IMG/VR virus record: IMGVR_UViG_3300025103_000070
Span: 1 to 36,248 of that record
Source of the DNA: a virus
Taxonomy: Duplodnaviria > Caudoviricetes
DNA length: 36,248 nt
Reading direction: 5' to 3' (one strand)
The first letter of the stretch is position 1, and every line of letters begins with the position of its first letter. A model generated the notes under the pieces. The model was not told where the DNA came from, ran no database searches, and was given only the letters and a program-made list of their open reading frames with translations. Shown here one piece after another: positions 3,745 to 35,695 of this stretch. The position numbers and the translations under genes were made by a program.

Positions 3745-4349
3745 TGAAAACTATATATAGGTTTTTAGTTAAACCTAAAGAAGAGAGATACGATAATAAA
3801 ATAAAAGTAGGGGATAAAGAATTAATTACTAACACAAGAATAGAAACATTCCAATCTGTTAGTAAAAGAGCAATTGTAGAAGTTGTCCCTGAATATTTTA
3901 AAACTGGTATCCGACCTGGTGATGAAATAATTATTCATCACAATGTATTTCGTAGATTCTACGATATGAAAGGTAAAGAAAAGAATAGTGCTTCTTTTTT
4001 TAAAGATGATTTATTCTTTTGTGATATGGAACAGATATATTTATATAAGAAAAACAATGAATGGATTTCTAATTTAAACTATTGTTTCGTCCACCCTATA
4101 TTATCTACTGATGACTTTAGTACGTTTAAAGAACAATCTAATCTTGGAATACTAAAATATGGCAATAGCTCCTTAGAAGCCAAAGGAATAACCCCTGGAG
4201 CACTTATAACTTTCACTCCAAATTCTGAATTTGAATTTATAATAGATAGTGATCGTTTGTATTGTATGAAATCTAATGATATAGCCTTGACACATGAATA
4301 CCAAGAAGACAAAGTTAAATATAATCCAAGCTGGGCAAAGAGCTGTTGA
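3744..4349 (+). CDS. GroES-like co-chaperonin with two tandem GroES-like units
   Basis: First unit: RFLVKP...AIVEVVP...GIRPGDEIII. Second unit: YCFVHPI...GILKYG...GITPGALITF...FIIDSDRLYCMKSNDI. Both follow the GroES strand pattern. Confidence 0.6.
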   Translation: MKTIYRFLVKPKEERYDNKIKVGDKELITNTRIETFQSVSKRAIVEVVPEYFKTGIRPGDEIIIHHNVFRRFYDMKGKEKNSASFFKDDLFFCDMEQIYLYKKNNEWISNLNYCFVHPILSTDDFSTFKEQSNLGILKYGNSSLEAKGITPGALITFTPNSEFEFIIDSDRLYCMKSNDIALTHEYQEDKVKYNPSWAKSC

Positions 4350-4575
4350 GGAATTAATTAAAGTAGCAAAAGAACCTATTGTAGATTCTGGAGATGATGT
4401 TTCAGCAGATAGATTAAAAAATGCAGCTGCAACTAAAAAGTTAGCTATATTTGATGCTTTTGAAATCCTCACAAGAATAGAAACTGAGAAAGAACTATTA
4501 GAGGATAAACCTAAAAAAGAAGATAAAAAAGAAGAAAGATCTTTTAGAGGTTTTGCCGAAGGGAGGAGTAAGTGA
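4294..4575 (+). CDS. Putative terminase small subunit
   Basis: 93-aa helical protein that overlaps the TerL GTG start. The functional call is positional only. Confidence 0.45.
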   Translation: MNTKKTKLNIIQAGQRAVEELIKVAKEPIVDSGDDVSADRLKNAAATKKLAIFDAFEILTRIETEKELLEDKPKKEDKKEERSFRGFAEGRSK

Positions 4576-6812
4576 GTTACGAGCAAACACTTTGGAAAGA
4601 AGTAAAAGATGTTGTAAACCCTAAGATACTTAAGAAGCAAAATAGATTTAAGAAATGGGAGTATGGTTATAATCCAGATTATGACTTTATAGTAATTAGT
4701 AAAACTGGTAAGATTGGACAAATCATTGAGATTCAAAACCTACGTATTGCATTACCGGCAGAAGACGAATGTTTTAAACGAAGTGAAGTTAAAGAGAAAC
4801 AATACTGGGAAAAACAAGAATACCCAAAAGAATTAAGTAGAATAAAGAGTAGATTTGATTGGGAGGAATATCCAAATGATTTTAAAGAAAAGTGGTACGA
4901 CTATATTGACAATGAATTCAAAAAACGAGACGAGGGTTATTGGTTTTTTAATAACGGTAATCCTACTTATATTACTGGTACTCATTACATGTACTTGCAA
5001 TGGTCAAAGATCGATATCGGATCACCTGAATATAGAGAAGCAAATAGACTCTTCTTTATATTCTGGGAAGCTTGTAAAGCAGATACCAGGTGTTATGGAA
5101 TGTGCTATCTTAAGAACAGACGGTCTGGTTTCTCCTTTATGTCATCAGCAGAACTTGTTAATCAAGCAACAATCTCAAGTGATGCAAGATATGGTATTCT
5201 CTCAAAAAGTGGAGCAGATGCTAAAAAGATGTTCACAGATAAAGTTGTACCAATCTCGATTAACTATCCGTTTTTCTTCAAGCCGATCCAAGATGGTATG
5301 GATCGTCCTAAAACCGAACTGGCATACAGAGTTCCGGCATCTAAACTTACACGTAGAAAACTGGAGACGAACGAACAGCTTAAAGAACTTCAAGGATTAG
5401 ATACTACAATTGATTGGAAAAATACAGGGGATAACTCTTACGATGGTGAGAAATTAAAAATATTAGCCCATGATGAAAGTGGTAAGTGGGAAAGACCTGA
5501 TAATATATTAAACAACTGGCGAGTTACAAAAACTACATTGCGACTAGGAAGAAGGATCGTAGGTAAGTGTATGATGGGCTCAACTTCAAACGCATTAGAT
5601 AAAGGTGGAGACAACTTCAAAAAATTATACTACAATTCAGACGTTACTCAAAGAAATAGAAACGGACAAACAAGTTCGGGACTCTATTCTTTATTCATCC
5701 CTATGGAATGGAATTACGAAGGATTCATGGATTCTTTTGGATCACCTGTCTTCATTACGCCAAAAGATAGAACGATTGCAGTCGATGGTCTCCCAATTAC
5801 AATCGGAGTCATCGAACACTGGGAAAACGAAGTCGAAGGATTAAAATCTGATCAAGATAGTTTAAACGAATATTACAGACAATTTCCCCGTACTGAACAA
5901 CACGCTTTTAGAGATGAAACTAAACAAAGTTTATTTAATTTAGTAAAAATCTACGAACAGATAGATTATAATGAAGAGTTAAATAATAAAGTTAACGTTA
6001 CAACTGGAACGTTTCAATGGGAAAGAGGAATAAAAGATACTAAAGTTATATTTCATCCTAAAAAAGATGGTAGATTTAGAATTAGTTGGGTTCCTGATAA
6101 AAATATCCAAAACAATGTGATTATAAAAAATGGAATTAAACACCCTGGAAACGATCATATCGGAGCATTTGGTTGTGATTCTTATGATATTAGTGGCACT
6201 GTCGACGGTAAAGGGTCTAATGGATCACTTCATGGATTAACTAAGTTTTCTATGGAAAATGTTTTACCTTATCACTTTTTCTTAGAATATATTGCACGTC
6301 CTCAAACAGCAGAAATATTTTTTGAAGATGTACTTATGGCATTAGTATTTTACGGCATGCCTATACTTTGTGAAAATAATAAACCTAGACTTTTATATTA
6401 TTTAAAGCGTAGAGGTTATAGAGGATTTTCTATAAGTAGACCTGATAAAACATGGAATAAACTTTCCACTACAGAAAAAGAAATAGGGGGAATACCAAAT
6501 TCAAGTGAAGATATAAAACAAGCACATGCAGCTGCAATCGAGAGTTATATAGAAGATTATGTTGGTTTTAGAGGAGAAGAGTGTGGAGATATGTACTTTC
6601 AAAGAACATTAGAAGATTGGGCAAAATTCAATATAAATAATAGAACTAAGCATGATGCTACAATAAGTTCAGGTTTAGCAATTATGGCTTGTAATAAGAA
6701 TAAGTATAGACCAACAGCAACTAGAACAAAGAAAAAAATAGATTTAGGAATATCTACATATGATAACACGGGATCGACGTCTAAAATAAATAATATACAT
6801 GATTTACACTAA
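4572..6812 (+). CDS. terL: Terminase large subunit
   Basis: Walker A-like KNRRSGFS, Walker B ILAHDESGKW, coupling motif MGST, RNase H-like nuclease motif FGCDSYD and a C-terminal HD. Lies directly upstream of the portal. GTG start. Confidence 0.92.
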   Translation: MSYEQTLWKEVKDVVNPKILKKQNRFKKWEYGYNPDYDFIVISKTGKIGQIIEIQNLRIALPAEDECFKRSEVKEKQYWEKQEYPKELSRIKSRFDWEEYPNDFKEKWYDYIDNEFKKRDEGYWFFNNGNPTYITGTHYMYLQWSKIDIGSPEYREANRLFFIFWEACKADTRCYGMCYLKNRRSGFSFMSSAELVNQATISSDARYGILSKSGADAKKMFTDKVVPISINYPFFFKPIQDGMDRPKTELAYRVPASKLTRRKLETNEQLKELQGLDTTIDWKNTGDNSYDGEKLKILAHDESGKWERPDNILNNWRVTKTTLRLGRRIVGKCMMGSTSNALDKGGDNFKKLYYNSDVTQRNRNGQTSSGLYSLFIPMEWNYEGFMDSFGSPVFITPKDRTIAVDGLPITIGVIEHWENEVEGLKSDQDSLNEYYRQFPRTEQHAFRDETKQSLFNLVKIYEQIDYNEELNNKVNVTTGTFQWERGIKDTKVIFHPKKDGRFRISWVPDKNIQNNVIIKNGIKHPGNDHIGAFGCDSYDISGTVDGKGSNGSLHGLTKFSMENVLPYHFFLEYIARPQTAEIFFEDVLMALVFYGMPILCENNKPRLLYYLKRRGYRGFSISRPDKTWNKLSTTEKEIGGIPNSSEDIKQAHAAAIESYIEDYVGFRGEECGDMYFQRTLEDWAKFNINNRTKHDATISSGLAIMACNKNKYRPTATRTKKKIDLGISTYDNTGSTSKINNIHDLH
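4912..5400 (+). CDS. Candidate overprinted gene in the +1 frame of terL, a membrane-anchored or lipoprotein-like protein of 162 aa
   Basis: The frame is open from 4845 to 5400. The ATG at 4912 gives MNSKNETRVIGFLITVILLILLVLITCTCNGQ. The overlapping TerL codons avoid TTA entirely. Confidence 0.5.
   Translation: MNSKNETRVIGFLITVILLILLVLITCTCNGQRSISDHLNIEKQIDSSLYSGKLVKQIPGVMECAILRTDGLVSPLCHQQNLLIKQQSQVMQDMVFSQKVEQMLKRCSQIKLYQSRLTIRFSSSRSKMVWIVLKPNWHTEFRHLNLHVENWRRTNSLKNFKD
5605..5844 (+). CDS. Candidate second overprinted gene in the +1 frame of terL, a 79-aa coiled-coil protein
   Basis: GTG start and heptad LSSLRQKIERLQSMVSQLQSE. The overlapping TerL codons are strongly enriched in C-ending forms (GTC, ATC, CTC, TTC, TAC, AAC). 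Confidence 0.5.
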   Translation: METTSKNYTTIQTLLKEIETDKQVRDSILYSSLWNGITKDSWILLDHLSSLRQKIERLQSMVSQLQSESSNTGKTKSKD

Positions 6813-21650: not shown

Positions 21651-22355
21651 ATGGGAAATCCAGCTTTAGCAATGTTAGCAATGAAAATGGGGCCAGACGT
21701 TATTGGAGGAGTTACAAGCTCTGTCCAAGCTCGGAAAGCTAGTAACACTCTTAAAGAGAAAGAAGAGTTAATGAAAAAGATTATGGATACTAGACAAGAT
21801 ATACCAAATCCAATGGATAATTATCAAGATCTAAGCGGTATGATAACTAATCCATATGCTAATTTATCTGTTGCTACTAAAGCTGCTGAGATGCAAGCGG
21901 AGGAAGCTGATATTTCCCTTGCTAATACATTAGATACTATGAGAGCTACAGGAGCTGGTGCTGGTGGTGCCACTGCTTTAGCACAGGCTGCTGCTAAATC
22001 AAAAGAAGGTGTTGCTGCTAGTATAGAGACACAAGAAGCTTCTAATGCGAGGCTTAAAGCACAAGGAGAACAAGCAGCGAATCAAGCGATGATGCAAGAG
22101 AAACAAAGAATGCAAACTACAGCAGATGCATCTCAGAAATGGATGTTTGGACAAACTGAAGCTAGAGAAGACGAACAAATCCAGTTTGCTGAAAAGCAAG
22201 CAGATAGAGCTTGGTCTGAAAAATGGCAATATAAAAACCAAGCGCGAGGGTATTGGGATAGCGCAGGAGACACATTATCATCAAGTGGAATTTCTACTTA
22301 TGGACAAGCTATGGGAGTAGATCCTAGTATAGTAGGGCAATTCATAGGAGGATAA
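21651..22355 (+). CDS. Internal virion / DNA ejection (pilot-like) protein
   Basis: 234 aa, Ala/Gly/Gln/Met-rich, with a hydrophobic Gly-rich N-terminus and a coiled coil. Follows the tail genes. Confidence 0.6.
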   Translation: MGNPALAMLAMKMGPDVIGGVTSSVQARKASNTLKEKEELMKKIMDTRQDIPNPMDNYQDLSGMITNPYANLSVATKAAEMQAEEADISLANTLDTMRATGAGAGGATALAQAAAKSKEGVAASIETQEASNARLKAQGEQAANQAMMQEKQRMQTTADASQKWMFGQTEAREDEQIQFAEKQADRAWSEKWQYKNQARGYWDSAGDTLSSSGISTYGQAMGVDPSIVGQFIGG

Positions 22356-34282: not shown

Positions 34283-35695
34283 CTACTTTATCACCTTAGT
34301 AACTGTCCCATTATCCCATAAATGTATCATAAAACCTTTTTCAATTGAATCAATTTCTTGCCCATGGATATTTATAGTTTTAATAATACGTTTTCTTTCT
34401 CCTTTAACTTGAATAGCTATTGGATGAAATGTTTCACTTTTTCCATCATAATCTACTTGTCTTAATCTATAATAAGTATAACCTACGTGAGGATTATAAT
34501 CATTAAGAAAGTATGACAATTGGGTATTAGTAGTGCCTGCTCCTATTACACTATCTACTAAAGACCATTGTTCTAAATCTGTAGATTTTTGAACTGTAAA
34601 ATAATCATTATTAATTTGGGAAGCTACAGTCCATTCTATATGAACAACATTTCCACTTACTTCTCCATTAAATGATACTAAAACTATAGGTAAAGCATTT
34701 CCGCCTCCTTGGTGTCCAAATACAGTATTAGGTCTAATAGAATTAGTATATCCATTGGAACTAGGGAAACTTCCATCACTGTAATTATATACTACTGAAT
34801 TAGATTTAGCAGTGTATTGAAATTCAGGATAACTAAGAGCGTATGATCCATGATTGTTAACTACTTTAACAACTAAATTTCTCACTCCATCCCATCCATA
34901 AGCTCCTTGTAAAACAACTTCATTCCATCCGGGAACAAAACTTATAGGACCATCATATACTTTTTTCCACTCATCCCAAGGACCTGCTCCAGCTTCAGGC
35001 ATAGTTCCATCATGAAATATTTCCTCAGGTGTCATTGCCATCCAAATTTCTTGATTATTTAAAATCATAGAATTTCCATTCAGAACATTCCAACTAATTT
35101 TCTCCATTGTTAAAGGTACTCCACCTAATTCTGCAACGGTATATATAGAAGCACTCCAACTATAATCATAATATCCATAAGCAGGAACTCTACCATCGTT
35201 TAACGTAGAGTTAGGATCTCCAATAGTAACTTCATTACCAGTTCCACCGCTACTACCACCTCCCGTGGAAGCTGGAGTTTTATATATCATTACTTCAGTA
35301 GAAGTAGAATTAGACACGCAATTATATTCAGTTAAGTGTACATACAAAACACCTGTGTAAGCTGCTGTATGTTTAATATAAGAAGTATATCCTGTACAGC
35401 CAGCAAAGTCATCATTAAAATCCACAATAACTCCTAGCTCATCTATTAGAGTTAATTGAGTATCATATGAAGCATTTACCCCACCATGATTTCCACAAGT
35501 AGAAAATTCATATTCATCTCCAGTAGTTATATTTACTCTTATAATTTCACCTGCCCAATTATAACTAGTAGCAGATCCCCATGTATTATTACTTGGCGTA
35601 TACGCTGTACTTGGATAATAATTAGTACCATTATCACATTGAGCATTATAGAATCCTATAATCACAATAAATATTAAAGTTAATAAATTTTTCAT
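34283..35695 (-). CDS. Secreted protein resembling Bacteroidota T9SS cargo (signal peptide, PPC-like domain, beta-sandwich, LPxxLxxF domain, CTD-like tail)
   Basis: MKNLLTLIFIVIIGFYNA|Q, YEFSTCG...YDTQLTL...FNDD, LPIVLVSFNG...YYRLRQVDYDGK, and C-terminal IIKTINIHGQE...DNGTVTKVIK. Confidence 0.7.
   Translation of the reverse strand: MKNLLTLIFIVIIGFYNAQCDNGTNYYPSTAYTPSNNTWGSATSYNWAGEIIRVNITTGDEYEFSTCGNHGGVNASYDTQLTLIDELGVIVDFNDDFAGCTGYTSYIKHTAAYTGVLYVHLTEYNCVSNSTSTEVMIYKTPASTGGGSSGGTGNEVTIGDPNSTLNDGRVPAYGYYDYSWSASIYTVAELGGVPLTMEKISWNVLNGNSMILNNQEIWMAMTPEEIFHDGTMPEAGAGPWDEWKKVYDGPISFVPGWNEVVLQGAYGWDGVRNLVVKVVNNHGSYALSYPEFQYTAKSNSVVYNYSDGSFPSSNGYTNSIRPNTVFGHQGGGNALPIVLVSFNGEVSGNVVHIEWTVASQINNDYFTVQKSTDLEQWSLVDSVIGAGTTNTQLSYFLNDYNPHVGYTYYRLRQVDYDGKSETFHPIAIQVKGERKRIIKTINIHGQEIDSIEKGFMIHLWDNGTVTKVIK

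Follow-up and report, generated by a model that had tools for sequence, protein, structure and literature searches.

A +1 reading frame nested in the terminase large-subunit gene of an uncultured phage group is held open and under purifying selection

To our knowledge, few overprinted genes of tailed phages are well supported, and most of those are lysis genes. T7 18.7 in 18.5 (NC_001604) and lambda Rz1 in Rz (available part of PMC8365609) are out-of-frame genes embedded in late genes. T7 gene 19 (terL) also contains two small ORFs, 19.2 and 19.3, which lie wholly inside it in the +1 frame at offsets 646 and 1183 (NC_001604). The available part of PMC8365609 treats both as hypothetical, conserved in T7 relatives and with a potential lysis function, and the accessible portions of PMC2680503 and PMC6938266 make no mention of 19.2 or 19.3. 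In the accessible part of PMC8227390, which concerns RNA viruses, genes that arose de novo by overprinting are said to have a narrow distribution and, for the most part, accessory functions.

We analyzed a 36-kb phage contig (36,248 nucleotides, referred to as the window) that carries a GroES-like gene, a 93-aa gene, terL and the portal gene in that order (Table 1). The nearest annotated records were an uncultured spring phage (63%), Flavobacterium elemo phages (45%) and Cellulophaga phages (37-38%), so the host is probably a member of the Bacteroidota. The nested frame examined here, ORF2, overlies TerL codons 345-424 in the +1 frame of terL, and its GTG lies 5 codons after the TerL GSTSN motif, which we take to be ATPase motif III. 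T7 19.2 (85 aa, GTG) likewise begins shortly after the counterpart of GSTSN, at TerL codon 216 and about 15 codons after GTPQ, and is the closest precedent for ORF2 (79 aa, GTG). The precedent is non-homologous: comparison of ORF2 with 19.2 and 19.3 using hhalign gave probabilities of 0.1-0.3% (E 0.19-0.6), and T7 belongs to an unrelated phage group. The T7 nested frames have a P(open) of about 0.05 in a single-sequence test, whereas selection on ORF2 is evident from comparative data. Two further genes were recorded elsewhere in the window. A gene at 21651-22355 (+) has a 75-codon stop-free +1 run with raised third-position G (0.17) and a 64-aa ATG-led ORF at 22126-22320, and 34283-35695 (-) encodes a 470-aa protein with a signal-peptide-like leader and no PHROG match that by eye resembles a Bacteroidota secreted protein.

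Table 1. Features of the terL locus, in window coordinates.
Feature	Position	Strand	Description
93-aa gene directly upstream of terL	4294..4575	+	conserved; predicted helical hairpin
terL, terminase large subunit	4572..6812	+	746 aa; PHROG 6681, E 4.5e-167; ancestral frame
ORF0, candidate third nested +1 ORF	4714..4836	+	TTG start; 40 aa; basic
ORF1, first nested +1 ORF	4855..5400	+	hydrophobic leader ending in LITC; likely start is the nearer ATG at 4912
ORF2, overprinted +1 gene	5605..5844	+	GTG to TAA; 79 aa, ~9.1 kDa, pI 8.0
Putative ORF2 start, GTG	5605..5607	+	formed from TerL codons GGT-GGA (G345-G346)
ORF2 core	5641..5772	+	residues about 13-56, around SLWNGxTKDS; common to all carrier lineages
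ORF2 heptad helix, LSSLRQKIERLQSMVSQLQSE	5746..5808	+	residues 48-68; L48 and L65 invariant in 37/37

The initial annotation described ORF2 as set off from the first nested ORF by stops, and eight +1 stops (5398-5596) indeed separate ORF1 from ORF2. The stop-free run of ORF2 is 81 codons and ranks second after ORF1 among same-strand off-frame runs in 15 genes. Judged from one genome alone, the probability that the entire frame is open by chance was 0.002-0.005. However, TerL codons 343-395 permit only about one +1 stop per sequence, so openness there is partly trivial and the strong support for ORF2 is comparative rather than single-genome openness. Codon usage also changes over ORF2. Third-position C was used in 22/80 codons (27.5%) compared to 41/481 (8.5%) in terL outside ORF1 and ORF2 (Fisher p=8e-6), while third-position G was the same (7/80 versus 51/481 in the rest of terL, p=0.84). 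The switch to C-ending codons that was first read as a GC3 shift is therefore a C shift only. A terL segment recombined from a higher-GC donor, which the initial annotation had raised against its own reading, was excluded: only C3 rises, and the ORF2 stretch is at least as similar to the clade members (identity 0.81) as the C-terminal flank is (0.76).

Selection on the +1 frame was assessed using 80 loci with a whole TerL and 80 with the TerL C-terminal part, which lies outside ORF2. Removal of 9 loci not covering the region and 13 duplicates resulted in 139 terL genes including the window; 80 further loci picked by ORF2 likeness were used for alignment depth only and excluded from the counts. 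The 24 nearest terL genes formed a clade (support 0.91). These contained no +1 stops over the first two parts of ORF2 against 69 expected (observed/expected 0/26 over codons 343-395 and 0/43 over codons 396-412), and 13/37 over codons 413-423; the corresponding values for the flanks were 160/167 and 621/627. No comparable stop depletion was observed in the other frames of terL in these 24 genes; +2 stops dropped to 90/171 at codons 343-395 because C replaces T. NTA codons were never found before a purine, where they make a stop (0/122), as compared to 47/135 before a pyrimidine, and stop-forming codons were avoided at 11 different variable positions of the ORF2 region. When the clade was enlarged to 38 members, 37 had an ORF2 of 68-86 codons and the exception (L023) had lost it. 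In the clade the shortest ORF2 stops where the heptad does, at residue 68. On the conservation check proposed initially, start, length and heptad were retained in the clade (37/38 with at least 68 codons), but the heptad was not retained outside it.

Codon choice in TerL pointed to the same frame. Among the 37 clade members with ORF2, rare codons were fixed at L371 (CTC in 35/37, background 0.01), F375 (TTC in 37/37) and F394 (TTC in 36/37, background 0.12), and the fixed very rare TerL codons fall where the +1 frame gains Ser or escapes a stop. Third-position change in TerL, measured by tree-aware parsimony, was reduced over ORF2 to 0.51 of control in the window's clade (p=0.0002) and to 0.57, 0.63 and 0.65 of control in three other groups (p<=0.0012). 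Codons 342-409 were the lowest synonymous-change window of terL, with 0/10000 control bootstraps as low. TerL-silent changes that alter ORF2 were found at 0.29 compared to about 0.54-0.63 in control regions, and pNN/pNS over ORF2 was 0.38, modestly below the controls (0.46-0.75). Sites silent in both frames were free to vary (pSS 0.94, few sites). An independent locus set selected on the TerL C-terminal half gave a matching picture. Together these data demonstrate that the +1 frame in terL is held open and under purifying selection, and indicate that ORF2 is very probably a real translated gene.

That ORF2 specifies no protein, and that the pattern reflects a DNA or RNA constraint (promoter, packaging site or structure), a chance opening or a GC-rich import, we regard as very unlikely. 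The few stops that TerL codons 343-395 allow regardless would fit such an origin, as would the constraint that reaches upstream of ORF2 (codons 277-341, ratio 0.80), but neither the unchanged G3, the freely varying both-frame-silent sites nor the specific avoidance of stop-forming codons does. RNA structure as a cause was rejected as well, with a fold z-score of -0.09, 0/22 pairs compensatory and no Rfam match.

An in-frame TAG at 5596-5598 lies just before the ORF2 GTG, and this stop at codon 342 was present in 37/37 intact clade members. The GTG was present in the same 37/37, and GGT was found at TerL codon 345 in all 38 of the enlarged clade. GGT was also completely fixed at 1 other of the 43 conserved Gly sites of TerL, so conservation of the GTG alone is little proof. 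Initiation at GTG is weak, and the sequence around it is unlike the A/T-rich starts of the other genes in the window. Carriers beyond the window's clade probably start at an ATG at codon 353, 354 or 357; this ATG was found in 59/60 carriers and also in 33/42 non-carriers. As a conserved GTG directly follows a conserved stop and other lineages offer these ATG alternatives, ORF2 appears to be translated by independent internal initiation. The alternative is a programmed frameshift near codon 343-345, in which the TerL ATPase portion would run into a hairpin tail instead of the lid and nuclease. Codons 344-346 read AAA GGT GGA without exception (24/24) and ORF2 has no clear Shine-Dalgarno sequence, both of which would suit a shift. 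However, in the window's clade the +1 stop at codon 342 restricts a shift to two or three codons, other carriers vary at these codons yet have the downstream ATG, and conserved RNA structure was absent. We regard a frameshift as very unlikely. Just upstream, TerL codons about 301-340 (5473-5592) were under moderate synonymous constraint (the 0.80 ratio over codons 277-341) with the +1 frame closed, and this stretch is possibly a promoter or initiation element. A scan for sigma-70 promoters and terminators resulted in 13 sites compared to 10.3 in shuffles, an uninformative difference.

AlphaFold modeled ORF2 as two long helices (2-35 and 41-78; pLDDT 80, pTM 0.54) joined at SLWNGITKDS, and the product is accordingly predicted to be two antiparallel helices with the hairpin turn at SLWNGxTKDS. 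The amino acids of ORF2 are largely dictated by the overlapping TerL. The peptide was compared to stop-free synonymous recodings of the same TerL stretch. The window peptide was more hydrophilic (GRAVY -0.50 compared to +0.89 for the recodings, p=0.003) and its residues 44-68 were more amphipathic than the recoded stretch (p=0.003), in agreement with the initial description of a hydrophilic heptad peptide unlike typical out-of-frame junk. Across the clade, hydrophilicity passed this comparison in 37/37 sequences and second-helix amphipathicity in 26/37, while the N-terminal helix (8-33) was amphipathic beyond the recodings in 0/37. Retention of the heptad as a coiled coil was largely confined to the window's clade; in other carriers the C-terminus was shorter and often basic instead of heptad. 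Read from its sequence, the window copy has no hydrophobic leader, no Cys and a GRAVY of -0.75, and neither a TM helix nor a signal peptide with a lipobox Cys, as expected of a spanin or holin, was found.

Searches with ORF2 returned no family. Pfam produced only weak coiled-coil matches below cut-off, PHROGs and NCBIfam had no match to the window protein, and three PHROGs were matched weakly by 1-2 of 96 ORF2 members. A PDB sequence search found nothing at E<=10, and at E<=0.001 Foldseek matched no structure of PDB or BFVD. The best ESM Atlas match (0.81) was generic, and VIA-align produced generic coiled-coil and hairpin matches, none of which identifies a partner. The best fold match was prefoldin (Z 10.6, rmsd 1.4, 76 aligned) with dozens tied within 1-2 Z, and no small terminase was among the top fold matches. 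No stand-alone homologues were found: by eye, the 13, 17 and 38 matches (overlapping sets) looked like the +1 frame of terL relatives, most of them joined to TerL-frame sequence in the manner that assembly indels would produce, and the protein-database matches likewise looked like this +1 frame, mostly joined to TerL-frame sequence. On these searches ORF2 is a new protein family, and the arrangement itself is of a known kind. No published description of ORF2 was found in the openly accessible literature.

ORF2 was carried by about 97/139 relatives in a patchy distribution, using a carrier set defined post hoc after the data were seen. The distribution is narrower than that of terL, with ORF2 absent or broken in 42/139 relatives whose TerL and upstream gene persist. 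The ORF2 codon signature was bimodal across six other groups (14/14, 10/10, 16/16, 10/19, 9/14 and 1/27); the signature was trained on other groups that were chosen after their constraint had been seen, and the last three counts are independent tests. Group G (n=27) had an open frame (2 stops versus 34 expected) without the codon signature (1/27). The shortest carrier ORF2 was 56 codons. On a 49-row tree built without the ORF2 codons the carrier state changed 6 times, and strongly supported branches require 4 or more of these changes, which may represent repeated loss or spread by recombination. The frame was closed in MW202828 and phi13:2. Among the 38/139 loci with at least 3 kb of flank, no gene present solely where ORF2 is missing was evident upstream. 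ORF2 looks to have been born in place by overprinting, and because it has been repeatedly lost an essential packaging role is excluded.

T4-like small-terminase oligomerisation hairpins consist of two long antiparallel helices, and ORF2 is predicted to form a hairpin of similar size. Unlike a small terminase, ORF2 is nested and dispensable, has no DNA-binding domain, and is not present wherever TerL is (absent or broken in 42/139). A separate small-terminase candidate is the 93-aa gene at 4294-4575, for which the fold search found only generic hairpins. In elemoA (L243:3542-6172) and Calle_1 (L245:3527-6166) TerL lies directly after groES and is about 130-150 aa longer N-terminally, and in the window and phi13:2 the place of this extension is taken by a small gene of its own. 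The long TerL of elemoA and Calle_1 is possibly a fusion of small and large terminase; BLASTP of the window 93-aa protein against the elemoA and Calle_1 N-terminal extensions found no likeness. A non-essential packaging role, in which the ORF2 hairpin modulates packaging through TerL, the portal or a ring of the 93-aa small-terminase candidate, is possible but doubtful. By position ORF2 would be co-transcribed with the packaging genes, both it and the 93-aa protein are predicted two-helix hairpins, and the T7 terL contains a nested ORF at the corresponding position. Yet TerL and the upstream gene persist in the 42 relatives without an intact ORF2, nesting shows where a frame was free rather than which partner is bound, and the hairpin fold is generic.

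The other nested frames of terL were also evaluated. ORF1 had 24 +1 stops compared to 223 expected in 24 relatives. It is open far beyond chance, with the sequence after its leader barely constrained. By eye, the clade seems to alternate between an ORF1 ATG near TerL codon 109 and one near codon 114-115, and TAC at Y139 (31/34) preserves the Thr before the Cys. Over ORF0 the synonymous change ratio was 0.46 (p=0.0002) in the window's clade only, with the other groups unconstrained. CGA was used at R70 in 32/32 compared to a background of 0.03, and all 32 intact clade members covering the region were free of +1 stops at TerL codons 48-86. ORF0 is a candidate third nested +1 gene. The initial proposal of a small hidden cassette held up in that ORF2 behaves as a protein-coding gene, and the cassette may hold three genes (ORF0, ORF1 and ORF2), but the proposed partnership with ORF1 was weakened: in 121 terL genes spanning both regions ORF1 was open without ORF2 in 12, and the ORF2 codon signature occurred with ORF1 broken in 10. 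As each was lost independently, ORF1 is not an obligate partner of ORF2. These counts also bear on a lysis or envelope role for ORF2 as the partner of the lipoprotein-like ORF1, in a spanin-like or holin-regulating pair. The two ORFs share a gene, frame and message, both are open in at least 54/121 relatives, and lysis roles have been speculated for T7 19.2/19.3 in the available part of PMC8365609. Apart from the independent losses, the ORF1 leader is export-like while ORF2 has no leader and the window copy no Cys, which would place the two in different compartments. Rz1 and T7 18.7 are lipoproteins (o-spanins) nested in the gene of their own partner, whereas ORF2 lies in terL and has neither leader nor lipobox. 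We consider the lysis role unlikely.

The reading we prefer, with a probability of roughly 0.35, is that ORF2 is a soluble, dispensable late accessory protein that binds a host partner; the remaining probability includes roles outside those discussed here. ORF2 would be translated from a late message covering groES, the terS-like gene, terL and portal, with ribosomes starting internally at the GTG, or in other lineages at an ATG 8-12 codons downstream. No Shine-Dalgarno sequence would be used for this initiation, a mode suggested by the A/T-rich starts of other genes in the window. Judging from position and composition, expression would be late and low-level and the protein cytoplasmic. The amphipathic helices would engage a partner. 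We favor a host protein rather than the packaging motor in this role, since TerL is conserved whereas the presence of ORF2 varies.

A further nested frame was noted in the cultured Cellulophaga phage Calle_1 (NC_062744), where an ATG-led 87-codon +1 ORF (L245:4923-5183, +) occupies the same place in terL. It is not homologous to ORF2, and its P(open) of 0.005 is post hoc. The TerL proteins of phi38:1 and phi40:1 are 99% identical. Avs-type host immunity senses terminase. A more speculative proposal, which we think improbable, is that terL holds a three-gene +1 stack, that the stretch after motif III is a recurrent birthplace of genes (here, in T7 19.2 and perhaps in Calle_1/phi38:1), and that ORF2 is a bodyguard shielding TerL from terminase-sensing immunity or else a motor tuner.

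ORF2 would be a soluble protein of no known family. Its gene overlies the conserved ATPase half of an essential enzyme and escapes standard annotation. The phage group that carries it is uncultured and abundant, with an estimated 13000 or so stretches matching TerL peptide patterns. The history of the gene can be traced through a shift of start codon, extension of the C-terminus and loss, and it offers an independent counterpart to T7 19.2, itself unexplained. With ORF2, ORF1 and the candidate ORF0, terL would be one gene specifying up to four proteins.
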